Origin: a virus
Direction: 5' to 3' (one strand)
IMG/VR virus record: IMGVR_UViG_3300044683_000172
Location: 1 to 64,000 of that record
Length of the DNA: 64,000 nucleotides
In this document: one piece after another, positions 26,873 through 44,453 of the stretch
Layout: every line of letters starts with the position of its first letter
How positions within the stretch are numbered: the first letter of the stretch is position 1
Translations under genes and position numbers: made by a program
Notes under the pieces: generated by a model
The model's input: the letters and a program-made list of their open reading frames with translations, nothing else
Told to the model about the DNA's origin: nothing
Databases searched by the model: none

Positions 26873-27010
26873 ATGATCAAAAGAAATGGCACATCGATCA
26901 TCTTTGCTTTCTTCGCGCTGATGTCGATCTTTGGTGGTGAAAAGGGCGCTGCGCTCGCATTCTTCTTCTTTTGCGGATTGACTTTGGATTTGAAGAGAGG
27001 GTGTGAGTGA
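26873..27010 (+). CDS. small membrane peptide
   Basis: 45 aa, hydrophobic (IIFAFFALMSIFGG). Confidence 0.3.
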   Translation: MIKRNGTSIIFAFFALMSIFGGEKGAALAFFFFCGLTLDLKRGCE

Positions 27011-27027
27011 AACGAGAAGAGAATGAA

Positions 27028-27852
27028 ATGTTGGACCAAATCAAATTCACTTCCGAGCACGAATTGCCTGTGCAATCCCTAAAGAGATCAGGGATTTACC
27101 GCATCGTATCGCCAAGCGGAAATTTCTATGTAGGAAGTGCTGTTGAAATTCGAAAACGATGGCGCAATCACAAGCGTCAACTTATCTCTGGCGTTCACCA
27201 CAACAAACCGCTGCAAGCTGCTGCCAAAAAGTACGGTTTGGAAAGCCTGCGATTCGAGATCATCGAGCACTGCGATTCTGATGTGCTCATTAACAGGGAA
27301 CAGTTTTACATCGACGCGCTGCGCCCTAAGTACAACACGTGTTTGGTGGCCGGAAGCCCACGCGGCGTGAAGCGTTCCGAAGAGACGAAGGCGAAGGTGC
27401 GCGCCGCGAATGTCGGCAGGAAGCACTCCGAAGAGACGAAGGCAAAACTGAGTGCCGCGAAGATCGGTAAGAGGCTTTCTGAGGACCACAAAGCGAAGTT
27501 GAGCGCGGCACGAATCGGCAAGATCGGCAAGAAGCATTCCGAAGAGACAAAGGCGAAGATGAGTGCGGCACACACCGGTAAGAAGTTTTCTGAGGAGCAC
27601 AAGGCGAAGATGAGCGCCGCGAATATCGGCAAGAAGCATTCCGAAGAGGCAAAGGCAAAAATGAGCGCGACACGAACCGGTAAGAGGCTTTCTGAGGAGC
27701 ACAAGGCAAATATGAGCGCCGCGCTTACCGGCAGGAAGCTTTCTGAGGAGCACAAGGCGAAGCTGCGCGCAGCGCGTCTGGCCTATTTGTCAAGGCGCAA
27801 CGGCGAGATTGGCACTTCGCTCGGATTTTCTTTCCCTGCTGATTCACTTTGA
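27028..27852 (+). CDS. GIY-YIG homing endonuclease with about 10 tandem NUMOD3-like repeats
   Basis: GIYRIVSPSGNFYVGSAVEIRKRWRNH...E catalytic module, then repeated SEE(T/H)KAK(M/L)SAA..GKKHS units (repetitive also at the DNA level, 27360-27780). Confidence 0.8.
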   Translation: MLDQIKFTSEHELPVQSLKRSGIYRIVSPSGNFYVGSAVEIRKRWRNHKRQLISGVHHNKPLQAAAKKYGLESLRFEIIEHCDSDVLINREQFYIDALRPKYNTCLVAGSPRGVKRSEETKAKVRAANVGRKHSEETKAKLSAAKIGKRLSEDHKAKLSAARIGKIGKKHSEETKAKMSAAHTGKKFSEEHKAKMSAANIGKKHSEEAKAKMSATRTGKRLSEEHKANMSAALTGRKLSEEHKAKLRAARLAYLSRRNGEIGTSLGFSFPADSL

Positions 27853-27891: not shown

Positions 27892-29040
27892 ATGACCGAC
27901 ATCCATTTCGAGCAATTCAACCCCCAACAAAAACGTGCCGTGGAATTGGCCGTCAGTTGGTACAAAGGCTGGGCTGACCGCAGCCATCGCAAGCAAATCT
28001 TTCGCCTCGGCGGTTATGCGGGCACTGGCAAAACGACCGTCGCACGAGTGATCGCTGAGTTGTGCGGCGGACAGCGCAAGGTCGTGTTCATTGCGCCGAC
28101 CGGAAAGGCCGCGAGTCGCCTGCGCCAAAAGGGTTGTGCCTACGCAAAGACCATGCACAGTTTCATCTACAACGTGCGCGGCGAAGACGAAGAAGGCGAA
28201 CCCATATTCAGCGCAAAAGGCGCGTTGGATGAGCGCCCGGTGCTTGTGATCATGGACGAGGCATCGATGGTCGGCGAGTATGACCGAAAGAACTTGCTGA
28301 TGCACGGCATCCCAATCCTGGAAATCGGCGACCCTGGCCAAATTCCACCGGTGAAAGACAAGCAAGTATTCACGCTCGATTCGCTGGACTTCGTTCTGGA
28401 AGACATCGAGCGCAACGCCGGCAATATCGTCAAGGCATCCATGTTTATTCGCCAAGGCAAGCGCCTTCCTGTCCGCGAGTATGACGATGCGCGCGTTCGC
28501 GAAGGGAAGCCGGACGATGCGACGATGCGCGAACATCTGGGCGAGGATGCCGTAATTCTGTGCGCATTCAACTCCAGCCGCGAGTGGATGAACGAACGGG
28601 CGCGACGACTGCTTGGCTTCTCCGGAGACATCCCGCAAGTTGGCGAGAAGGTTGTATGCACCTTCAACCAGCACGGCTATGGCTGGATGAACGGAGAACA
28701 GGGAATCATCATCAATTACTATGACATTCCTGACGAAGAGAAGGACGACGAAAACGAAGACTGCATGTTTGCAACGATCAAGTCCCTGACGGACGGAAAA
28801 GAGCGTCGCATCATGTTTAATCCGCTTTCGTTCTCGCCGGACGGCGAACAGAAGAAAGCCGCACAGCGCTCGATTGGCGGCGTGGACTACGGCTACTGCC
28901 TCACTGTCCACAAGTCGCAGGGGAGTGAGTGGCCGCGCGTGATGATTATCGAAGAAACATTGCGCGGTGTCCCATACGAGCAAATGATGTATACTGCTGT
29001 GACGCGCGCCATCGACCAATTCACGCTGTACCGACAATAG
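27892..29040 (+). CDS. Dda/RecD-like superfamily 1 DNA helicase
   Basis: Walker A GGYAGTGKTT, VLVIMDEASMV, and the RecD-family motif TVHKSQGSEW. Confidence 0.8.
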   Translation: MTDIHFEQFNPQQKRAVELAVSWYKGWADRSHRKQIFRLGGYAGTGKTTVARVIAELCGGQRKVVFIAPTGKAASRLRQKGCAYAKTMHSFIYNVRGEDEEGEPIFSAKGALDERPVLVIMDEASMVGEYDRKNLLMHGIPILEIGDPGQIPPVKDKQVFTLDSLDFVLEDIERNAGNIVKASMFIRQGKRLPVREYDDARVREGKPDDATMREHLGEDAVILCAFNSSREWMNERARRLLGFSGDIPQVGEKVVCTFNQHGYGWMNGEQGIIINYYDIPDEEKDDENEDCMFATIKSLTDGKERRIMFNPLSFSPDGEQKKAAQRSIGGVDYGYCLTVHKSQGSEWPRVMIIEETLRGVPYEQMMYTAVTRAIDQFTLYRQ

Positions 29041-29210: not shown

Positions 29211-29975
29211 ATGTCGCAAAACGAAGAACAAGCCAAGGCAGCACGGGACGAAGCAAAGGCCGCCAAGAAGGCCCAGCGCGAAGCCGAGAAGCAGCGCAAG
29301 GCCGAGGAAAAGGCCGCGAAGGACGCCGAGAAGCAAGCGCAGCGCGAAGCCGAACTGAAGAAGAAGGAAGAAGAGCGCGCCGCCAAGGCTGCCGAAAAGC
29401 AGGCCGAACGCGAAGCGAAGAACCGCGAAATGGCCGAGAAGCGCGAACAGGAAAAGGCCGCCAAGGCTGCTGAACGCGAAGCCGCGAAGGCCGAGGCCGC
29501 TGCGAAGAAGGAAGCCGACAAGGCCGCGAAGAAGGAAGCGCGCGAAGCCGAGAAGGCTGCTGCGAAGGCCCAGAAGGAAGCCGACAAGGAAGCGAAGAAG
29601 GCTGCCCGTCTGGCCGAAATCGAAGAGCGCAAGCAGGCTCGCAAGGCGGAAGCCAAGGCGCGTGCCGAGGCTGTGGCGGCCCGCAAGGCCGAAACCAAGG
29701 GCGACGGTCGGCGCGCGAAGGCAACGCACATCGTGTACAACGGCCATGGCCTGAGCAACCCGCAAGCAATGTCGGTGCGCGGCAATGTGCTGGCGAAGAT
29801 CAAGGAAAACTGCCCGGTCGGCGAACAAGTCAGCATCGAGCAAGTGGCCGCGTTCTGCAAGCCCGTTCTGTACGGCGCGAACGTTCGAAGCTTCCTGGCC
29901 AAACTCGAAGAGATGGGCCATCTGGATTTCGTGACCGTGTCCAGCGAGCCGGCTGCGGAACCTGAAGCCGCGTGA
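29211..29975 (+). CDS. Lys/Ala/Glu-rich coiled-coil protein (histone H1-like or KfrA-like low-complexity N-region) with globular C-terminal domain
   Basis: About 160 aa of AKAAEKQAEREAK-type repeats, then a compact C-terminal domain (HIVYNGHGLSNPQAMSVRGNVLAKIKENCPVGEQVSIEQVAAFC...). Confidence 0.6.
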   Translation: MSQNEEQAKAARDEAKAAKKAQREAEKQRKAEEKAAKDAEKQAQREAELKKKEEERAAKAAEKQAEREAKNREMAEKREQEKAAKAAEREAAKAEAAAKKEADKAAKKEAREAEKAAAKAQKEADKEAKKAARLAEIEERKQARKAEAKARAEAVAARKAETKGDGRRAKATHIVYNGHGLSNPQAMSVRGNVLAKIKENCPVGEQVSIEQVAAFCKPVLYGANVRSFLAKLEEMGHLDFVTVSSEPAAEPEAA

Positions 29976-30123: not shown

Positions 30124-31107
30124 ATGGCTAAATACAATCGCATTATCGGCGCAGGCTTGGCTGGTCTGATCGCGGCGTGTCACTTCAAGGATGCCGAGAT
30201 TTACGAGGCCGGTCCACGGCAAGACAACCACAAGGCTCTTTTGCGATTTCGCGACGAGTCGGTGTCCAATCTGACTGGCATCCCGTTCAAACCGGTCACC
30301 GTCGATAAGGCGATCTACTTGGATGGCTGTTCGCCGGGATCGCGTGAGCGCGGCCTGTATGGCGCCTGTACCATCCAGATGGCCAATTGGTATGCCACGA
30401 AGACGACCGGACACGTTGCCGGCCGCAGCATCTGGAACCTGGAGCGGGCGACTCGCTATATCGCGCCGGAAGATTTCCATCAACGTCTCGTGGACAAGGC
30501 TGGATTCCTGGTCAACTACGAAAAGCCGATTGATACGATCCACTCGTGGGACAAACATCATTACAACACCATCAGCACCGCACCTTTGCCGGTCATGTTG
30601 AAGGCAGCTGGAATCGAGTTGCCGCATCTTCAAACGGAAAAGGCGCCGATCAAGGTTCAGCGTTTCCGCATTCCGAAGTGCGATGTTTACCAAACGATTT
30701 ATTTCCCTGAGATGGAATTGCGAGTGTTCCGAGCTTCCATAACCGGAGATATGTTGATCATCGAATCGGTGATGGAAAAGCACAATTCGGTGTTCGATTG
30801 GTGGTACATGCCAGATGCCGAATTGGATGTGGTTCTCACCGCGTTTGGTCTGAACCATCTACTGATGGACATCGAGCACCTGGAAGATGTTGAGCAGAAG
30901 TATGGCAAGATCGTGCCGATATCTTCCGAGCAGCGTCACGCGGTTCTCTATGAGCTCACCGAGCGATTCGGCGTCTATTCGCTGGGGCGATTCGCGACGT
31001 GGCGGAACATCCTTCTGGACGATGTGGTGAAGGACATCGCCGTGATCGACCGACTCATCAAGGCGTCCGACTATGGGCGCCTCCACATGACTTCGGAGAT
31101 GGTATGA
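30124..31107 (+). CDS. FAD/NAD(P)-binding flavoprotein of the UDP-galactopyranose mutase / amine-oxidase-like fold
   Basis: N-terminal IIGAGLAGLIAA dinucleotide-binding motif. C-terminal GRFATWRNILLDDVVKDIAVIDRLI resembles the UGM/amine-oxidase C-terminal signature (GRLGTYRYLDMD-like). Confidence 0.55.
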   Translation: MAKYNRIIGAGLAGLIAACHFKDAEIYEAGPRQDNHKALLRFRDESVSNLTGIPFKPVTVDKAIYLDGCSPGSRERGLYGACTIQMANWYATKTTGHVAGRSIWNLERATRYIAPEDFHQRLVDKAGFLVNYEKPIDTIHSWDKHHYNTISTAPLPVMLKAAGIELPHLQTEKAPIKVQRFRIPKCDVYQTIYFPEMELRVFRASITGDMLIIESVMEKHNSVFDWWYMPDAELDVVLTAFGLNHLLMDIEHLEDVEQKYGKIVPISSEQRHAVLYELTERFGVYSLGRFATWRNILLDDVVKDIAVIDRLIKASDYGRLHMTSEMV

Positions 31108-31715: not shown

Positions 31716-31889
31716 ATGTACAAGGTTCTGGTCACGACGATTTATATCGGTTGCGGCTCGGGAGCAGCCGTCCATACGTCTACTATCGAATTCGATAGCC
31801 ACGCGCTCGCTACCGCTGCCGTTCGTATCATCAACGAAAACCACTGCGACAATAACTACAGCCAGAAAGCCCTGGCCCTCTTCCAATGA
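31716..31889 (+). CDS. small hypothetical protein (57 aa)
   Basis: RBS aaggaggattgaATG. Stop overlaps the ThyX-like start. Confidence 0.3.
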   Translation: MYKVLVTTIYIGCGSGAAVHTSTIEFDSHALATAAVRIINENHCDNNYSQKALALFQ

Positions 31890-32716
31890 AAGTCACCCTC
31901 ATATCCCACACCCAAAACGCTCTGGAGCTTCTGGTTGATACGAAGCACACGCGTATGCGCGGCAAGACGGCCGATCAGATGACTGAAGCCGAACGATATG
32001 AGCACTTCCAGTACATGCTTGATACGATCCGCTCGCCGTTCGAGTTCGTTGATTACATCTTCCAGATCGAAGGCGTGTCCAAGAACTTCACGCATCAACT
32101 GGTTCGCACACGTACGGGCGCGTATCAGCAGGAAACCAGTCGCGCGCTGGAAATATCGGCCTTCGATACGATCAAGCCGAAGGCATTCGATGGAAACGGA
32201 CAGATAGATACGCCCTTGAATGAAGTTTGGGCGGACGCAATCGCCGATGCAGACGCCAACTACAAACAGTTGATTGCAATGGGCGCCGACCTTCAAGACG
32301 CCCGCGCCATCCTTCCGTCCAACATGGCCACCAAGATCATGGCCAAGTTTAATCTCCGGACGCTTTCTGATATGGCCAAGAACCGCCTGTGCGCACGTAC
32401 ACAAGGTGAGTATCAGGAAGTCTTTCGGGCAATGCGCGCGGCGGTGTTGGAAGTTCATCCCTGGTCCGACCCGCTCTTGCAGGTGGCGTGCGTTGCGACA
32501 GGGCAATGCGCCTTTCCGCGTTGGGGATCGAAGGTTATCGAGACGACGGCAAACGTACTGGGCCGCGATACCGTCATCGGTCAGAAGTATCAGTGTCCGC
32601 ACTATCGGCCTTGGATGGACCTGTCCGCTCAGAAGGAAGCATTGCGCGTATCCTTCTGGTCCAAGGAAGAAATCGCGCAAGCCAACCCCGTCGCCAAGAA
32701 TGGCGTTTCCATGTAA
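31886..32716 (+). CDS. ThyX-family (flavin-dependent thymidylate synthase-like) enzyme with divergent signature (RTR..G....S.R instead of RHR..S....S.R)
   Basis: HQLVRTRTGAYQQETSRA aligns to the ThyX RHRxxSxxxxSxR motif. The second block NLRTLSDMAKNRLCARTQGEYQEV aligns to the ThyX dUMP-binding NxRxLxxxxxxRxxxxAQxEI block. Confidence 0.7.
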   Translation: MKVTLISHTQNALELLVDTKHTRMRGKTADQMTEAERYEHFQYMLDTIRSPFEFVDYIFQIEGVSKNFTHQLVRTRTGAYQQETSRALEISAFDTIKPKAFDGNGQIDTPLNEVWADAIADADANYKQLIAMGADLQDARAILPSNMATKIMAKFNLRTLSDMAKNRLCARTQGEYQEVFRAMRAAVLEVHPWSDPLLQVACVATGQCAFPRWGSKVIETTANVLGRDTVIGQKYQCPHYRPWMDLSAQKEALRVSFWSKEEIAQANPVAKNGVSM

Positions 32717-32724
32717 GGAACTTC

Positions 32725-33858
32725 ATGAACATCATCAACGAAACTCCCAAGCGACCGCTCTACATCTTCGACCTGGATGGCACCGTTTCATCGGACGGCT
32801 GGCGCAAGCATCTTCTGCCGAAACACCCGGACGGCCAGCCGCGTGCGGAGAATGATGGAACGATTCCCCACGATGCGTACGACAAGTACCATTCCCTGCT
32901 GGGCGGCGATATGCCCATGTACGCTGGATTCAAGTGCCTGAAGCGTGCCATTGCTTTGGGCGCCTTCATCGTTTTCTTCACGGCACGGCCGACGTCTTAT
33001 CACGAAAAGACTGTTGAATGGCTGGAAAAGTTTCTCGGCAACTTCGATTACTGGCTTTACATGCGTGACGATGATGATCTTCGCGGCTCCGTTGAGCTCA
33101 AGTTGGATATGTTGAGCCGTCTCAAAGAAACGCTGAAGTTGAGCGCCCATTGGCACTTGGAAACCATCGCCATCTACGATGACCGAGCCGATGTTCTTGG
33201 AGCAATCGGCAGCACCGGCATCAACGCCTTCCGTATCACCGAGAACAATGAAGTTGTGATGGTCTCGTATCACAACGGACATAAATTCCCGAAGGAGATG
33301 TCTGCTCTTCACGAACAGATCAACGCCGGAGCCGCCGGGAATTGCGACCCCAACAAAAAACAAGACGCGAACGTCAAGGCCATCGAAGAAACGAAAACCA
33401 TTGGCGATATCTCGATCAAGACGCGAACCGAATTCGTCGCGCCTGCCAATCACGTCAGCGGATTCGTTGATAAACCCGAATCCCTGGCCAAAGCCATTGG
33501 AAATGCATGGGAGGCTGTGATGGGCCTTACCGGGAAGCCCGTTCGAGAAACGAGCGCGGCCGACCTGCTGGACGAAATGGCCGCGACGTTCCGAGAGCGC
33601 AACAAGGTGTACGGCAACAACGAGAAGCTGGTTGGCGACGTGATGTCCGCGATGTTTCCGAATGGCGTGACGCTCCGGACGGCAGCAGACTTTCGCATGT
33701 GGCACCTGTTTGAATTGAAGGTGGTGAAGTTGACACGTTTCGCTGTCTCCGGCCTGCAGCACCAAGACTCCATCCACGACGACGGCGTTTATAGCGCCAT
33801 GTGTGAACGTCTGGTTGGTACCCACAACATTCAAATCAACCAGGACGAATCGGAGTGA
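32725..33858 (+). CDS. HAD-superfamily phosphatase (likely (deoxy)nucleotide 5'-phosphatase) with additional ~180-aa C-terminal domain
   Basis: Motif I LYIFDLDGTV. Motif II FFTARPT. Later YDDRADVLG (Asp pair). Confidence 0.6.
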   Translation: MNIINETPKRPLYIFDLDGTVSSDGWRKHLLPKHPDGQPRAENDGTIPHDAYDKYHSLLGGDMPMYAGFKCLKRAIALGAFIVFFTARPTSYHEKTVEWLEKFLGNFDYWLYMRDDDDLRGSVELKLDMLSRLKETLKLSAHWHLETIAIYDDRADVLGAIGSTGINAFRITENNEVVMVSYHNGHKFPKEMSALHEQINAGAAGNCDPNKKQDANVKAIEETKTIGDISIKTRTEFVAPANHVSGFVDKPESLAKAIGNAWEAVMGLTGKPVRETSAADLLDEMAATFRERNKVYGNNEKLVGDVMSAMFPNGVTLRTAADFRMWHLFELKVVKLTRFAVSGLQHQDSIHDDGVYSAMCERLVGTHNIQINQDESE

Positions 33859-33860
33859 CC

Positions 33861-34268
33861 ATGGAAGACAAATTCTCTGAAGACAATCCGAAATACGGAA
33901 TGCCACCGTTGAATGATTATGACCGCCGAAAGGAGTTGCAGGAAGCCGATTTGTTGCCTGCTTACAGTCACTTCTCCCAGCTGAATCCGGCCGAGCAAGA
34001 GCGGCTGACGCTTTTGTACGAAGAGGCCAGCGAAGTCATCAAGGAAGTGGCCAAGATTCAGCGACACGGCTTTGAGTCGCGCAATCCGGATAATCCGATG
34101 GCGAACACCAACCGGCAGAATTTGGCCATCGAAATCGGTCAACTTCAGTTTATCATCAACGTTCTGAAAGAGCGCGGCGATGTGGACGGAAAATTGGTTG
34201 ATCACGTCGCCAAGGAGCGCCATCTTTCCATCAACCGTTACCTCCACCACAACAAATTTCGAGCATGA
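33861..34268 (+). CDS. MazG-like nucleotide pyrophosphohydrolase
   Basis: LYEEASEVIKEVAKI...IEIGQLQFIINVL fits the EExxE...E..D/Q all-alpha NTP-PPase pattern. Confidence 0.6.
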   Translation: MEDKFSEDNPKYGMPPLNDYDRRKELQEADLLPAYSHFSQLNPAEQERLTLLYEEASEVIKEVAKIQRHGFESRNPDNPMANTNRQNLAIEIGQLQFIINVLKERGDVDGKLVDHVAKERHLSINRYLHHNKFRA

Positions 34269-34984
34269 ACTCCTTTGTGAACAAAACGTCTGACAACCGA
34301 CTCGCCGGCAAATCCTTCATCGTCACCGGCGCTGGCGCTGGTCTGGGCGCGGCGATCTGCCGACGCCTGAATGAATCCGGAGCGCGTACGTACGGCATCG
34401 ACATCAAGTGGGGAAGCGATGTGCGTGACCCGGCCATCTGGGATGCTTACAAGGGATGGGATATCGACGGCCTGATCAACTGCGCTGGCATCAACGCCAA
34501 CGACTGGTTTGAGGATGTTAGCCCTTTCCAGTTGCAGAACGTTATGGAAGTGAACGCATTCTCGATGGTGTACGCCGTGCAAGGTTTGCTGCCGCAGCTG
34601 CACAAATCGTCGGGCGTCGTCGTCAACATCGTATCCAACGCCGCTAGTATGCCGATGACCTCGTCTCTGGCCTACAACATGTCCAAGGCGGCAGCGCTGA
34701 TGGCCACGAAGCAGATGGCGCACGAGCTTACGAAGAAATACGGGATCACCGTCTTCAGCGTCTCGCCGAACAAGCTGAAAGGCACCGAGATGTCCAAGCA
34801 GATCGAGGCCGACGTGCAACGCGTTCGCGGCTGGACGCCCGAATTCGCCGCCGACTATCAGGCCAAGTCGCTTATGCACGGGCTGGAGACGCCGCCGGAA
34901 ATGGTCGCTGAGGTCATCGTCAATGCTCTAGAAACCGGCGCGTGGAAGTATATGAGCGGGACTGACATTCCGGTCGGCAAGTAA
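34265..34984 (+). CDS. short-chain dehydrogenase/reductase (SDR)
   Basis: TGAGAGLG cofactor motif and YNMSKAA (YxxxK) catalytic motif. Confidence 0.75.
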   Translation: MNSFVNKTSDNRLAGKSFIVTGAGAGLGAAICRRLNESGARTYGIDIKWGSDVRDPAIWDAYKGWDIDGLINCAGINANDWFEDVSPFQLQNVMEVNAFSMVYAVQGLLPQLHKSSGVVVNIVSNAASMPMTSSLAYNMSKAAALMATKQMAHELTKKYGITVFSVSPNKLKGTEMSKQIEADVQRVRGWTPEFAADYQAKSLMHGLETPPEMVAEVIVNALETGAWKYMSGTDIPVGK

Positions 34985-35022: not shown

Positions 35023-35691
35023 ATGACCCAACTGAAATTCCGCATCGAACAAATCGCCCTGGCTCCTGCCAACACCGGCCGCGCCATCAAGCTTCTTTCC
35101 GACCTCGGCCTCACCGACTGGTTCAAGGACAACGTGGTGGCCAGCGGGCATGTGTACGGCGTTCCTGGCCAGAACAGCGCCCTTTTGCAGTTCAACTACC
35201 AAGCCGGCAACGGCAACGATCCGGCCGGCAAGCCGTTGGAGTTGGAAGTGCTGAAGTACGTGGACGGCAACAACTGGCTGAACTATCGCCCGGACAACAC
35301 CACGTCGCATCTGGGCATGCACGTCACGAGCGAAGAACTGTACGCCTTCCAGAAGTATTTCGAGCGCGAAGGCATCCCCGTTGCCCAGGCCGTTTGGACG
35401 GATGCGCACACAAATCCCGCCATCGCCGGCAAGCGTTTCTACAACTACGTCATCTTCGATACACACCAGATCATCGGCGTCGATCTGAAGTTCATCGTGC
35501 GCCATGACGTCACGCAAGTGGAGCAGAAAGAATCGCGCTTGCATCGCAATGGCGAAATCACGAGCAATGTCAAGGTCGAAATCGATACGAAGGACATCGA
35601 CCGTGCCGTCAAGCGCGCTCTGTCCGCCAAGAAGACTGTCGCCAAGCCTGCCAAGCCGGTCGGGCGCAAAACCGCTGTGCGCTCGAAATAA
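35023..35691 (+). CDS. VOC/glyoxalase-like two-module protein with Lys-rich C-terminal tail (tentative)
   Basis: Two beta-alpha-beta-like modules (FRIEQIALAP...; HLGMHVTSEELYAFQKYFEREGIPV...). Basic tail KKTVAKPAKPVGRKTAVRSK. Assignment by pattern only. Confidence 0.4.
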   Translation: MTQLKFRIEQIALAPANTGRAIKLLSDLGLTDWFKDNVVASGHVYGVPGQNSALLQFNYQAGNGNDPAGKPLELEVLKYVDGNNWLNYRPDNTTSHLGMHVTSEELYAFQKYFEREGIPVAQAVWTDAHTNPAIAGKRFYNYVIFDTHQIIGVDLKFIVRHDVTQVEQKESRLHRNGEITSNVKVEIDTKDIDRAVKRALSAKKTVAKPAKPVGRKTAVRSK

Positions 35692-35778: not shown

Positions 35779-36342
35779 ATGATATTCGCAGTAGCGGATA
35801 CGGAAACTACTGGCCTGCCATTCCATCGCGCGGCGCGACTCGATCAGCAGCCGCGCATCATCGAAATCGCAGGCGTCATAACGGACGGTGTTGATGTTCT
35901 GGACAAGTTCGAGTGCATCGTCAACCCCGGCGTGGCAATCGAACAGATCATCACCGACATCACCGGGTTGACGAATGCCGATTTGGCCGATAAGCCGGCA
36001 TTCAAGGACGTCATTCCGCAGGTTGCCGAGTTCTTCGGTAAAGCAGACGCCTGCATCTTCCACAACGCATCATTCGACCGATCCATGTTTGCCTATGATC
36101 TCCAACGCATCGGCTTGGAGTTGGACGCGATCAACTGGCCTGAGCTCACCATCTGTACCGTTGAAGAGACGATGCCGCGATATGGGCGCCGCATGAAGCT
36201 GGAAGAGCTTTACAACCTTCACTGCGGCGAATATGTCCAGAAGCACAGAGCATTGGACGACGTTTTGCTGCTTCATCAGGTCTGCATCAGGACAGGCGTT
36301 TACAGCGCATACAAGCAAACAGAAGAGATGAGGGCGCTATGA
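35779..36342 (+). CDS. DnaQ-like 3'-5' exonuclease (DEDDh)
   Basis: Exo I IFAVADTETTGL. Exo II IFHNASFDRSMF. Exo III HRALDDVLLLHQV. Confidence 0.8.
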   Translation: MIFAVADTETTGLPFHRAARLDQQPRIIEIAGVITDGVDVLDKFECIVNPGVAIEQIITDITGLTNADLADKPAFKDVIPQVAEFFGKADACIFHNASFDRSMFAYDLQRIGLELDAINWPELTICTVEETMPRYGRRMKLEELYNLHCGEYVQKHRALDDVLLLHQVCIRTGVYSAYKQTEEMRAL

Positions 36343-43889: not shown

Positions 43890-44453
43890 ATGACTGAATA
43901 CAACATTTCCATCCAAGACCTTTTCGCTGCCGTCGTTGCCTGGGCGAAAGCGCGCAATCTCATCGCAGGCAGCGATCCGAAGACGCAAACGCTCAAGACC
44001 GTCAGCGAATTCGCCGAGATCGGCGCTGGCATCTTCAAAGAAGACATCGACGAAATCAAGGACGGATTGGGCGACACCCTTGTCACCGTGATCATCGTCG
44101 CGGCGCAGCTTGGCAAGGACGCATATGATGCATTCGAAACGAAAATCAGCCTGGAAAGCGAGCTTGGCGAAGATTTCGAAATGTACAACTACGAACTGGC
44201 AAGCGCAACGCTGGGGCTGATGGCCGACAACGTCATCAAGGGGCAAGTCAACGACTACATGATCAATCTCGCCGTGTTCATCCAGCTGCTTGCCGATATC
44301 GCCGAATCCCGCAGTTGCAGCCTTCACGACTGTCTGGCCGCTGCCTACGATGAGATCAAGGACCGCAAGGGCGTGATGTACCACGGCGCCTTCATCAAGG
44401 ATTCGGACCCGCGCTATGCAGGCGCCTGCGCCGAACTTGGCCTGGAGGCTTAA
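43890..44453 (+). CDS. MazG-family nucleoside triphosphate pyrophosphohydrolase
   Basis: VSEFAEIGAGIFKEDIDEIKDGLGDTLVTVIIVAAQLG fits the MazG E.GE...E..ELGD consensus. Confidence 0.65.
   Translation: MTEYNISIQDLFAAVVAWAKARNLIAGSDPKTQTLKTVSEFAEIGAGIFKEDIDEIKDGLGDTLVTVIIVAAQLGKDAYDAFETKISLESELGEDFEMYNYELASATLGLMADNVIKGQVNDYMINLAVFIQLLADIAESRSCSLHDCLAAAYDEIKDRKGVMYHGAFIKDSDPRYAGACAELGLEA

Follow-up and report, generated by a model that had tools for sequence, protein, structure and literature searches.

A ThyX-family gene of a PB1-like phage with a replaced RHR histidine lies in a conserved gene order of flavoprotein, ThyX and HAD phosphatase

The flavin-dependent thymidylate synthase ThyX (FDTS) has drawn interest both as a drug target and as a model of flavin-mediated methylene transfer. 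Its textbook signature (RHRX7S, His53 and a lid Tyr) derives from a few enzymes of cellular organisms and a single one from an algal virus. His53 of the T. maritima enzyme reportedly stacks on the folate pterin, an observation attributed to Koehn et al. in 2012. Phages also carry canonical enzymes, such as mycobacteriophage L5 gp48, which has reportedly been studied biochemically, and Clostridium phage phiCP26F gp43. Both are Thy1-domain proteins encoded in nucleotide-metabolism/replication regions, like the ORF described here, and both keep RHR and the H53-equivalent His, unlike this ORF. In the canonical enzyme, the RHR motif forms hydrogen bonds with the AMP phosphate, the ribityl and the FMN phosphate of FAD (review, PMC6514825), and the lid Tyr keeps solvent away from dUMP C5 and flavin N5 (PMC6514825).

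Recruitment of a ThyX-fold enzyme into another pathway, with changed specificity, has a precedent in PolB, a ThyX paralog of polyoxin biosynthesis that acts as a UMP/dUMP C5-methylase (PMC5954106). PolB is a Streptomyces biosynthetic-cluster enzyme with an unrelated gene context, and we saw no sequence-level affinity between it and the ORF. In the ThyA family, phage enzymes (T4 gp42, SPO1 gp29, RB69 gp48) have acquired a different product through just one or two substitutions in the active site and seed DNA hypermodification (PMC13326640; PMC8989533), and across that superfamily water access to the site marks hydroxymethylases, with single substitutions marking new chemistry (PMC13326640). The ThyA-family dUMP/dCMP hydroxymethylases and 5-hydroxy-dCMP synthases are a works-like analogy only, their fold and mechanism (with a Cys nucleophile) being unrelated. 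Phages with ThyA-type hydroxymethylases carry dNMP kinases and transferases, none of which was detectable in the window analyzed here.

This window is a stretch of 64,000 nucleotides (positions 1 to 64,000 of IMG/VR record IMGVR_UViG_3300044683_000172) from a PB1-like myophage, which agrees with the phage context read in the initial annotation. The protein encoded by the ThyX-like ORF is 70% identical to its homolog in Burkholderia phage vB_BglM_WTB, and more than 300 phage records label their homologs as thymidylate synthase. It consists of a Thy1 domain (residues 1 to ~195) and a C-terminal extension of ~80 residues. The Pfam Thy1 profile (PF02511) is matched along its full length (1-191 of 191) with 108.9 bits (E 3.5e-31), exceeding the gathering score of 24.8 bits, and PHROG 85 'thymidylate synthase' is matched with E 4e-44; the score of 82.7 bits for TIGR02170, the NCBIfam thyX equivalog, just misses the cut-off of 87.9. 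The AF2 model (pLDDT 88.6) shows a ThyX fold over ~200 residues. Foldseek returned only ThyX as top matches, and the PDB matches were led by the T. maritima, T. thermophilus and mycobacterial enzymes (T. maritima 1o26_A, E 3.7e-11, target-normalised TM 0.75); folate-complex entries of the H53A and H53D variants occur among the structure matches. By Foldseek, nothing in the solved structures of ThyX corresponds to the C-terminal extension. The ORF is therefore a real, intact ThyX-family gene of a PB1-like phage, as initially annotated. No other TS-family gene was found in the window, and ThyA, Dut and dCMP deaminase were not detected there.

Table 1 Coordinates of the ThyX-like ORF, its sequence features and neighbouring genes in the window
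Feature	Position	Strand	Details
p327, predicted FAD-binding flavoprotein	30124..31107	+	upstream partner; N-terminal GAGLAG motif; PHROG 4828 (unknown function), E 9e-107
ThyX-like ORF	31886..32716	+	276 aa, ATG to stop
ThyX-motif block VRTRTGAYQQETSRA	32102..32146	+	residues 73-87; alignment to T. maritima ThyX
T75 codon	32108..32110		ACA; aligned with T. maritima H79
Second ThyX block NLRTLSDMAKNRLCARTQGEYQEV	32351..32422	+	residues 156-179; holds R158 (= T. maritima R165), R167 (= T. maritima R174) and C169
Predicted Cys4 metal-binding site, span	32390..32596	+	C169, C202, C208, C237
C169 codon	32390..32392		
C202 codon	32489..32491		
C208 codon	32507..32509		
C237 codon	32594..32596		
HAD377	32725..33858	+	downstream partner; N-terminal HAD/PNKP-type phosphatase-like domain; Pfam HAD_PNKP sub-threshold; PHROG 4889, E 5e-55
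MazG-like NTP pyrophosphohydrolase	33855..34268	+	137 aa; PHROG 4856, E 1.3e-14; Pfam MazG just E 0.12
FabG-like short-chain dehydrogenase (SDR)	34265..34984	+	239 aa; Pfam adh_short, E 1.5e-30
DnaQ-like 3'-5' exonuclease	35779..36342	+	PHROG 192, E 2e-40; opens the Pol III alpha replication module
Second MazG-like gene	43890..44453		10 kb off

Both hallmark blocks recognized at first reading are present (Table 1). Alignment by HMMER and MAFFT places the T. maritima segment R78-H79-R80-I-A-S83-Y-N-E86-L-S88-G-R90-Y91 against R74-T75-R76-T-G-A79-Y-Q-Q-E-T84-S-R86-A87 of the query, so the His of RHR is indeed replaced with Thr. The accompanying claim that the first signature Ser had become Gly arose from a register error: S83 is replaced with A79, and the Gly aligns with A82. 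Instead of RHR-X7-S, the query reads R74-T75-R76-X7-T84, in which both Arg residues are retained and the motif Ser (S88) is conservatively replaced with Thr, keeping the hydroxyl. The T. maritima H53 corresponds to Ile48, and the lid Tyr that follows S-x-R (Y91 in T. maritima, Y108 in M. tuberculosis) to Ala87; the changes at S88, H53 and Y91 were absent from the initial annotation. Further differences from T. maritima ThyX are Gln for E86 and Arg for H178, and residues near the nucleotide loop also differ. The dUMP/FAD-binding set is present as Q71, E53, R74, R76, R86, R140, R158 and R167 (T. maritima Q75, E58, R78, R80, R90, R147, R165 and R174, respectively). The ORF thus has the domain, fold and dUMP/FAD-binding residues in common with canonical ThyX (T. 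maritima TM0449, M. tuberculosis Rv2754c, H. pylori, PBCV-1 A674R), and differs in the substitutions at H53, H79, E86, Y91 and H178, in its C-terminal extension and Cys set, in belonging to a virus-only branch, and in having flavoprotein and HAD phosphatase neighbours in ~95% of loci.

Of the 120 homologs closest to the query (59-100% identity), 119 carry RTR. Across IMG/VR loci (n = 151), the triplet at the His site is RTR in 132, RSR in 16, RNR in 2 and RHR in 1, and among subfamily representatives the His position is occupied by T (78), H (27), Q (20), S (10) or N (7). Judged from these alignments, RTR is no private mutation but what a large, virus-only branch of ThyX normally carries. Ala87 is conserved in 119/119 sequences of the close clade; across the subfamily the lid position is V/F/T/A/I, with Tyr in just 3 of ~143 representatives. 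The H53 site is I/L/V in about 136-147 of 151 aligned representatives (His in 2, the others being gaps or single N/A), and I/L in 150 of the 151 scorable IMG/VR subfamily genes. An alignment of 83 subfamily sequences with 21% mean column identity showed E53, R74, R76, R140 and R167 to be invariant and Q71, R86 and R158 nearly so, and the ligand-binding Arg residues are invariant among subfamily sequences as low as 30% identical. Two members bear inteins, inserted at the active-site motif between RAF and THQ. At the level of sequence, then, the branch breaks three signature features (RHRX7S, His53 and the lid Tyr) and keeps every substrate-binding Arg, and the conservation of RTR points to purifying selection.

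The branch occurs in therapeutic Pbunavirus phages, Wifcevirus, cluster-D actinophages and many uncultivated phages. It was not found in isolate cellular genomes: patterns from alignment A1 returned no cellular relatives and alignment A3 just 10 MAG contigs, so that there is no organism shown to rely on the branch for dTMP. A long RQR subgroup (450-570 aa) was considered as chlamydial ThyX, which would have made it a characterised enzyme without the His. This was rejected, since a search with P0232 matched only metagenomic contigs of 55-66 kb and Mycobacterium phage Hawkeye gp78 showed the subgroup to be the actinophage type. L5 gp48 was likewise rejected as a member; its RHR and H53 are canonical, which makes it uninformative for the subfamily. 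Our literature search found no biochemically or genetically characterised member, and nothing on His-less ThyX, metal-binding ThyX or Pbunavirus DNA base composition.

Four cysteines co-vary within the branch. They are all-or-none in 150 diverse representatives, with zero partial patterns among the full-length ones, and are invariant across the RTR and RQR clades (alignment A1), which are only 30% identical. The motif is R-L-C...C-x5-C-x(7-28)-C-[PS], the last Cys usually being followed by Pro; three of the four lie in the C-terminal extension, and C169 is two residues from R167. This pattern predicts a metal site (Zn or Fe-S; structural or redox) in about half of the branch. The phiCP26F ThyX carries a cysteine set, R-x-C...C-x4-C-x2-C, and retains RHR, so the Cys feature is separable from RHR loss. 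Neither the Cys4 set nor the gene cassette described below was part of the initial annotation.

The order FAD flavoprotein, ThyX, HAD phosphatase is conserved in ~95% of 160 subfamily loci and was not seen at any of 84 loci with canonical ThyX. Upstream of the ThyX gene and on its strand, a p327 homolog was present in 152/160 subfamily loci (at a distance of ≤300 nt in 72) and in none of the 84 controls, with near-contiguous pairs such as Cronobacter Ss1 orf34/orf33. The AF2 model of p327 (pLDDT 90) adopts a GR2-type FAD fold, as in UGM, amine oxidase, PPO and class-A monooxygenases. A second nucleotide-binding domain is missing from p327, and its similarity to reductases is no greater than that to oxidases, mutases and monooxygenases. 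Hawkeye gp70, annotated as 'oxidoreductase', was examined as a p327 homolog; it has a GxGxxG start and an LGR.[AG].W tail in common with p327, but with E 0.13 it is at most a remote analogue. HAD377, whose C-terminal domain of ~100 aa is well conserved, occurs at 149/160 subfamily loci but at none of the 84 control loci. The FabG-like SDR, a homolog of Hawkeye gp73 (E 6e-15), accompanies the cassette in 73/160 loci and again in 0/84 controls. Canonical phage ThyX loci lack p327, HAD377 and the SDR, and those of the L5 type have dCMP deaminase and RNR instead.

The initial annotation had placed the gene between a nucleotide phosphatase and pyrophosphatases. A HAD/PNKP-type phosphatase-like gene and one MazG-like gene do follow it, but the second MazG-like gene is distant (Table 1). 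Homologs of the adjacent MazG-like protein were not detected in the 160 subfamily loci at E<1e-4, and we regard it as accessory, outside the universal cassette. Searches of PDB, Pfam and NCBIfam by sequence gave nothing significant for p327, the C-terminal domain of HAD377, or the 137-aa and 222-aa proteins. The cassette is attached to a Pol III alpha module, which is syntenic with those annotated in WTB and E217; DnaQ is found in 131/160 subfamily loci. In E217, p327, the ThyX-like ORF and HAD377 correspond to gp67, gp61 and gp59, respectively, and PB1 also has an ortholog of the ThyX-like ORF. In Rhizobium phage TM61, the ThyX homolog sits with dUTPase and RNR.

We consider that the ORF probably encodes a functional flavin-dependent thymidylate synthase of a divergent virus-only subfamily, providing the phage's own dTMP supply. 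The enzyme would convert dUMP, CH2-H4folate and a reductant to dTMP, the expected product, within a Pol III alpha-type replication module. Thr75 would stand in for the RHR His, donating hydrogen bonds to the phosphates and the ribityl of FAD, alongside the retained dUMP/FAD-binding residues (R74, R76, R86, R140, R158 and R167, with Q71 and E53). C169, C202, C208 and C237 may coordinate a metal with a structural or redox role, and the p327 flavoprotein and the HAD phosphatase may serve the same nucleotide pathway as ThyX. Observations that count against a dTMP synthase are the sub-cut-off TIGR02170 score, the three replaced hallmarks, the fact that canonical ThyX needs no such cassette, and the resistance of Wifcevirus to restriction-modification (RM) systems.

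The initial annotation had favoured altered chemistry, for example hydroxymethylation without reductive methylation, over loss of function. Its argument against loss of function finds good support in RTR in 119/120 homologs, the retention of Ala87 and the ligand Arg residues, the inteins in the active-site motif, and the standing of the ORF as the sole TS-family gene found in the window. As a case for altered chemistry, the His to Thr replacement is weak, because the RHR motif, through its hydrogen bonds to the FAD phosphates and ribityl, serves in cofactor anchoring, and T, H, Q, S and N at this position can all form hydrogen bonds. What keeps altered chemistry alive is the loss of the lid Tyr, the flavoprotein/phosphatase cassette and the unexplained RM resistance of Wifcevirus (PMC11990801). 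Overall, we regard altered chemistry or partner dependence as unlikely, though with a probability that is not negligible.

One such arrangement, to which we give a minor but appreciable chance, is that dTMP is made but the flavin is reduced via p327 (together with an Fe-S or other metal site in the Cys4 branch), acting as a dedicated reductase or relay of electrons, and not directly by NAD(P)H. The occurrence of p327 upstream in 152/160 subfamily loci versus 0/84 canonical loci, its modelled FAD fold, which is assigned with confidence, the replacement of H53 with I/L/V in nearly all members, and the all-or-none cysteines, the last mostly before Pro, are consistent with this arrangement. However, the Cys-less branch has the same cassette, so a metal site is unnecessary for any partnership. 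Lacking a second nucleotide-binding domain, p327 is no more reductase-like than it is oxidase-, mutase- or monooxygenase-like, and joint inheritance with the Pol III alpha module, not biochemistry, could account for its position next to ThyX, given DnaQ in 131/160 loci. A broader proposal, which we hold to be unlikely, is that the cassette, often with the FabG-like SDR, constitutes a nucleotide pathway of its own, confined to viruses. ThyX would then either depend on the partner flavoprotein, and in half of the branch on a Cys4 Fe-S or Zn site beside the catalytic Arg, for its reductive half-reaction, or, with the lid Tyr and both hallmark His lost, release a C5-modified dUMP such as 5-hmdUMP.

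The release of a modified nucleotide can be framed more specifically. Ala in place of the lid Tyr would let water attack the exocyclic-methylene intermediate, giving 5-hydroxymethyl-dUMP or another C5-substituted dUMP, with the HAD nucleotidase and MazG-like enzymes clearing canonical nucleotides. We judge this rather improbable. The solvent-shielding Tyr is replaced with Ala87 in 119/119 sequences of the close clade, a water-opened site marks the hydroxymethylases of the ThyA superfamily (PMC13326640), the ThyX paralog PolB is already neofunctionalised (PMC5954106), and a HAD 'nucleotidase' and an NTP pyrophosphatase adjoin the gene. On the other hand, V/F/T/A/I at the lid site across the subfamily means that there is no single consistent 'opened' state, and the phage would be left without its own dTMP source. 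Hypermodification genes (kinase, glycosyltransferase and aminotransferase domains) were absent from the 40 window ORFs scanned, and no ThyA-family dUMP hydroxymethylase or follow-on kinase, transferase, lyase or other post-replicative modification gene of a 5-hmdU pathway was found in the window. Restriction data bear on both sides. The DNA of PB1-like phages is cut by all four enzymes tested, Sau3A, AluI, EcoRI and HindIII, the last two incompletely (PMC3634792). Wifcevirus relatives resist most RM systems tested by an unexplained mechanism, with no known protection, but are very sensitive to EcoP1_I (PMC11990801). Pbunavirus genomes cloned in yeast reboot (PMC10913387; JG024 and F8 are rebootable), and hundreds of PB1-like genomes have been sequenced routinely (504 phage records).

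A different substrate, with the ORF methylating UMP as PolB does, methylating dCMP or acting on uracil in polynucleotides, is very improbable. In its favour, PolB methylates both UMP and dUMP with relaxed specificity (PMC5954106), T. maritima E86 is Gln here and the surroundings of the nucleotide loop differ, and the ~80-aa extension is unmatched in solved ThyX structures; but the phosphate- and uracil-binding Arg residues are all kept as in dUMP-specific ThyX, the Arg to acidic change expected for cytosine recognition is not seen, and the replication-module context suits dNTP supply. That the ORF is a catalytically dead ThyX-like protein with a structural or regulatory role, as the departure from RHRX7S and the sub-cut-off TIGR02170 score might suggest, is scarcely credible against ligand-binding Arg residues invariant at 30% identity, inteins within the active-site motif and ~95% conservation of the cassette.

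These results define a large virus-only ThyX branch, about half of it with a predicted Cys4 site, whose genes almost always have an uncharacterised FAD flavoprotein gene on one side and a HAD phosphatase gene on the other. If its members are simply dTMP synthases, as we favour, they show which of the 'invariant' residues ThyX can do without and may point to a reductant partner of physiological relevance. If the product differs, this would be the first case of a ThyX-family enzyme redirected to making modified bases in phages; release of a C5-modified dUMP would imply an unrecognised DNA modification in PB1-like and Wifcevirus phages and account for the RM resistance that has been reported.

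The 276-aa ThyX-family protein matched Pfam Thy1 (PF02511) across the whole profile (108.9 bits, E 3.5e-31) and PHROG 85 'thymidylate synthase' (E 4e-44), and a PDB sequence search detected remote similarity to solved ThyX proteins, with T. maritima TM0449 (Tm) as the top match (E 1.5e-7). The AlphaFold2 model was built with 64 homologs as input (pLDDT 88.6). It recovered the ThyX fold, superposing on T. maritima, T. thermophilus and other ThyX structures over ~200 residues with a TM-score of 0.75 normalised to the target, while residues ~200-276 are without counterpart in the matched structures. These matches are far beyond chance: the query is a genuine ThyX-fold protein, and the family membership first claimed for it is borne out.

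Features of the ThyX region and related genes in the window
Feature	Position	Strand
GIY-YIG + NUMOD3 homing-endonuclease gene	27007..27852	+
Dda-like helicase	27892..29040	
254-aa protein, PHROG 4765	29211..29975	+
p327, FAD-fold flavoprotein	30124..31107	+
ThyX-family gene, ATG to stop	31886..32716	+
C169, C202, C208, C237 of ThyX	32390..32596	
HAD377, HAD/PNKP-type phosphatase-like	32725..33858	+
MazG-like NTP pyrophosphohydrolase	33855..34268	+
FabG-like short-chain dehydrogenase (SDR)	34265..34984	+
222-aa protein, between SDR and DnaQ	35023..35691	+
MazG-like NTP pyrophosphohydrolase	43890..44453	+

For residue-level comparison, the query was aligned to the Tm sequence, which was consistent with the PDB alignment of the same protein. 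Tm R78-H79-R80-I-A-S83-Y-N-E86-L-S88-G-R90-Y91 aligns with query R74-T75-R76-T-G-A79-Y-Q-Q-E-T84-S-R86-A87. The signature RHR...S....S.R had been read as RTR...G....S.R, an observation that is real but imprecise: His is indeed replaced by Thr (Tm H79, query T75), but the reported change of the first Ser to Gly reflects a one-residue register slip, since Tm S83 corresponds to A79. The motif serine Tm S88 is conservatively replaced by T84. The second block (query 156-179) aligns with Tm N163...Q180 and holds R158 and R167, equivalent to R165 and R174. Two further hallmark losses had been missed, namely Tm H53, which is Ile48, and the Tyr following S-x-R (Tm Y91), which is Ala87. In FDTS this Tyr is a lid that keeps solvent off dUMP C5 and flavin N5, the RHR motif hydrogen bonds to the AMP phosphate, ribityl and FMN phosphate of FAD, and the first Arg of the motif touches the isoalloxazine and dUMP (PMC6514825).

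RTR was the reading in 119 of the 120 nearest homologs in the databases (59-100% identity), and Ala occupied the lid position in 119/119. When all 1.84 billion cluster representatives were scanned with HMMER, 575 relatives were recovered at E<1e-10. Among the best 150 of these, reaching down to ~33% identity, the His79 position was T in 78, H in 27, Q in 20, S in 10 and N in 7; the H53 position was I/L/V in all but a few, and Q75, R78, R80, R90, R147, R165 and R174 (Tm numbering) were essentially invariant. Across 83 aligned sequences averaging 21% column identity, only E53, R74, R76, R140 and R167 (query numbering) were invariant. In a second, independent sample, 160 loci from IMG/VR, the counts were RTR 132, RSR 16, RNR 2 and RHR 1, with Ile/Leu at the H53 equivalent in 150 of the 151 motif-scorable genes and the position not placeable in the remaining one. 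Judged from these alignments, RTR is a clade character rather than a lesion. Every residue tolerated at the RHR-His site (Thr, Ser, Asn, Gln, His) can donate or accept a hydrogen bond, a choice that fits a retained role in anchoring FAD. The altered chemistry initially proposed was pinned on the wrong residue, and the His-to-Thr swap alone gives no reason to expect different chemistry.

Two metagenomic members (P0164 and P0166) carry inteins at GVTRAF/C...HN/THQLVRHR, in the most conserved ThyX active-site motif. The insertion site, RAF/THQLVRHR, lies six residues ahead of R-x-R, and one of the two inteins has an endonuclease-sized insert. Mycobacteriophage inteins also adjoin conserved active-site motifs of the proteins that carry them (PMC5050341). 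The conservation of RTR and the lid Ala, the invariant arginines and the active-site inteins together show that strong functional constraint acts on the query protein.

The window derives from a PB1-like myophage. The query shares 70% identity with the thymidylate synthase annotated in Burkholderia phage vB_BglM_WTB, ~61% with those in 292 Pseudomonas Pbunavirus records, and 57-60% with counterparts in Wifcevirus, Myosmarvirus, Xanthomonas and Xylella phages; as a gene it is unremarkable, with hundreds of phage orthologs annotated 'thymidylate synthase'. Its score against the NCBI curated equivalog model TIGR02170 (82.7 bits) is slightly below the 87.9 cut-off. The long RQR subgroup corresponds to the actinophage 'ThyX-like' type, such as Mycobacterium phage Hawkeye gp78. 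Unlike the query, the canonical phage enzymes L5 gp48 and Clostridium phage phiCP26F gp43 keep both RHR and the H53-equivalent His. In scans that took one genome for each of 185,579 species, clade-specific patterns recovered no relative; broader ones recovered just ten, each on a 1.6-59 kb contig from a metagenome-assembled genome, with isolate genomes yielding none.

Four cysteines absent from every corresponding position of Tm ThyX, C169, C202, C208 and C237, did not vary when sequences of the RTR and RQR clades (~30% identical) were aligned. They follow the motif R-L-C ... HPW ... C-x5-C-x(7-28)-C, usually with Pro or Ser after the last Cys, and C169 lies two residues past the active-site Arg R167. 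Among 150 diverse representatives they were all-or-none in every full-length sequence, with partial patterns only in truncated fragments, whichever residue occupied position 75. Because a metal site is expected to leave just such a pattern, the cysteines are predicted to form a Cys4 site binding Zn or Fe-S; the ThyX reviews searched made no mention of one. The otherwise canonical phiCP26F gp43 (RHR, H53-equivalent His) carries R-K-C ... C-x4-C-x2-C, so the cysteine feature is separable from RHR loss, and such clusters may be commoner in ThyX than solved structures indicate.

Gene neighbourhoods were compared by local tblastn on fetched loci, 160 from the subfamily and 84 canonical-ThyX controls.

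Neighbours of ThyX genes, as number of loci
Group	n	p327	HAD377	FabG-like SDR	DnaQ
Cys-less branch	80	76 same strand (75 ≤2.5 kb upstream)	73 same strand	30	67
Cys4 branch	80	76 same strand	76 same strand	43	64
Canonical (80 L5-type, 4 phiCP26F-type)	84	0	0	0	0

The p327/ThyX-like/HAD377 cassette thus occurred in ~95% of the subfamily loci, in very different phages, and in none of the controls. All p327 matches lay upstream of ThyX (median gap ~300-390 nt); HAD377 matches were mostly downstream (136/149 within 2.5 kb), with at least one moved upstream. The gene order of the window matches that of phage vB_BglM_WTB and of E217, another annotated relative: Dda-like helicase, p327, small ORFs, ThyX, PNK/phosphatase-like, DnaQ, Pol III alpha and helicase. 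The homing-endonuclease gene directly upstream of the Dda-like helicase in the window is absent from the equivalent position in both. The cassette is seen in unrelated named phages as well. In Cronobacter podophage Ss1 the p327 homolog orf34 abuts the ThyX gene orf33, and downstream orf32 begins with a HAD-type DxDGT motif, its similarity to HAD377 not being significant. Rhizobium phage TM61 (~200 kb) carries the cassette with dUTPase and RNR just beyond, and it is also present on nine MAG contigs, whose bins span six phyla. In Hawkeye, an 'oxidoreductase', a HAD 'nucleotidase' and a FabG-like SDR (gp73, homologous to the window SDR, E 6e-15) adjoin Pol III alpha and ThyX.

The confident p327 model (pLDDT 90; PHROG 4828) shows a compact FAD flavoprotein of the GR2 type. 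In structure it neighbours UDP-galactopyranose mutase, amine oxidases, protoporphyrinogen oxidase and class-A monooxygenases, none of them similar enough to assign a function. HAD377 is best conserved in its C-terminal domain, which had no family match. The SDR, within the replication and nucleotide module, has homologs alongside the cassette in 73/160 subfamily loci; one guess is a pteridine or folate reductase. The 222-aa protein (homologs in 61/160 subfamily loci) had no Pfam, PHROG or NCBIfam match. The 254-aa protein, extremely Lys/Ala/Glu-rich and low-complexity over its N-terminal two-thirds, has a conserved place ahead of p327 in PB1-like phages and in 30/80 Cys4-branch loci. A search around ThyX in the 160 related loci detected, at E<1e-4, neither of the two separate small MazG-like genes.

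The best-supported reading, which we consider probable, is that the gene encodes an active dTMP synthase from a diverged ThyX branch confined to viruses, where Thr would replace His in FAD anchoring. It is plausible, at distinctly lower probability, that the enzyme draws on the neighbouring flavoprotein, or on the metal site, to be reduced. Cassette and DnaQ/Pol III alpha replication module are inherited together, and this co-inheritance could account for part of the linkage without biochemical coupling.

Altered product chemistry yielding a modified base is possible but unsupported, and we regard it as improbable: loss of the lid Tyr, the admission of water to the exocyclic methylene that sets ThyA-superfamily hydroxymethylases apart (PMC13326640), the neofunctionalised ThyX paralog PolB (PMC5954106) and the incomplete EcoRI and HindIII digestion of PB1-like DNA (PMC3634792) favour it weakly, but EcoRI, HindIII, Sau3A and AluI all cut that DNA (PMC3634792), Pbunavirus genomes cloned in yeast can be rebooted (PMC10913387), a scan of 40 window ORFs turned up neither a kinase nor a glycosyltransferase nor any comparable modification enzyme, and no ThyA, Dut or dCMP deaminase was found in the window with sequence probes, of which those for Dut and dCMP deaminase matched true positives in other loci. 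Wifcevirus relatives carry the same ThyX type and cassette, and Wifcevirus Bas98-101 of the BASEL collection are reported to be insensitive to all tested RM systems but EcoP1_I, with no known genome-protection mechanism (PMC11990801); this unexplained insensitivity is the one phenotypic hint compatible with unrecognised DNA modification.

The literature searched yielded no experimental work on, and no characterised member of, this subfamily. What is new is the picture at the level of the branch: a ThyX lineage with three hallmark residues lost, a predicted Cys4 site and a conserved cassette.
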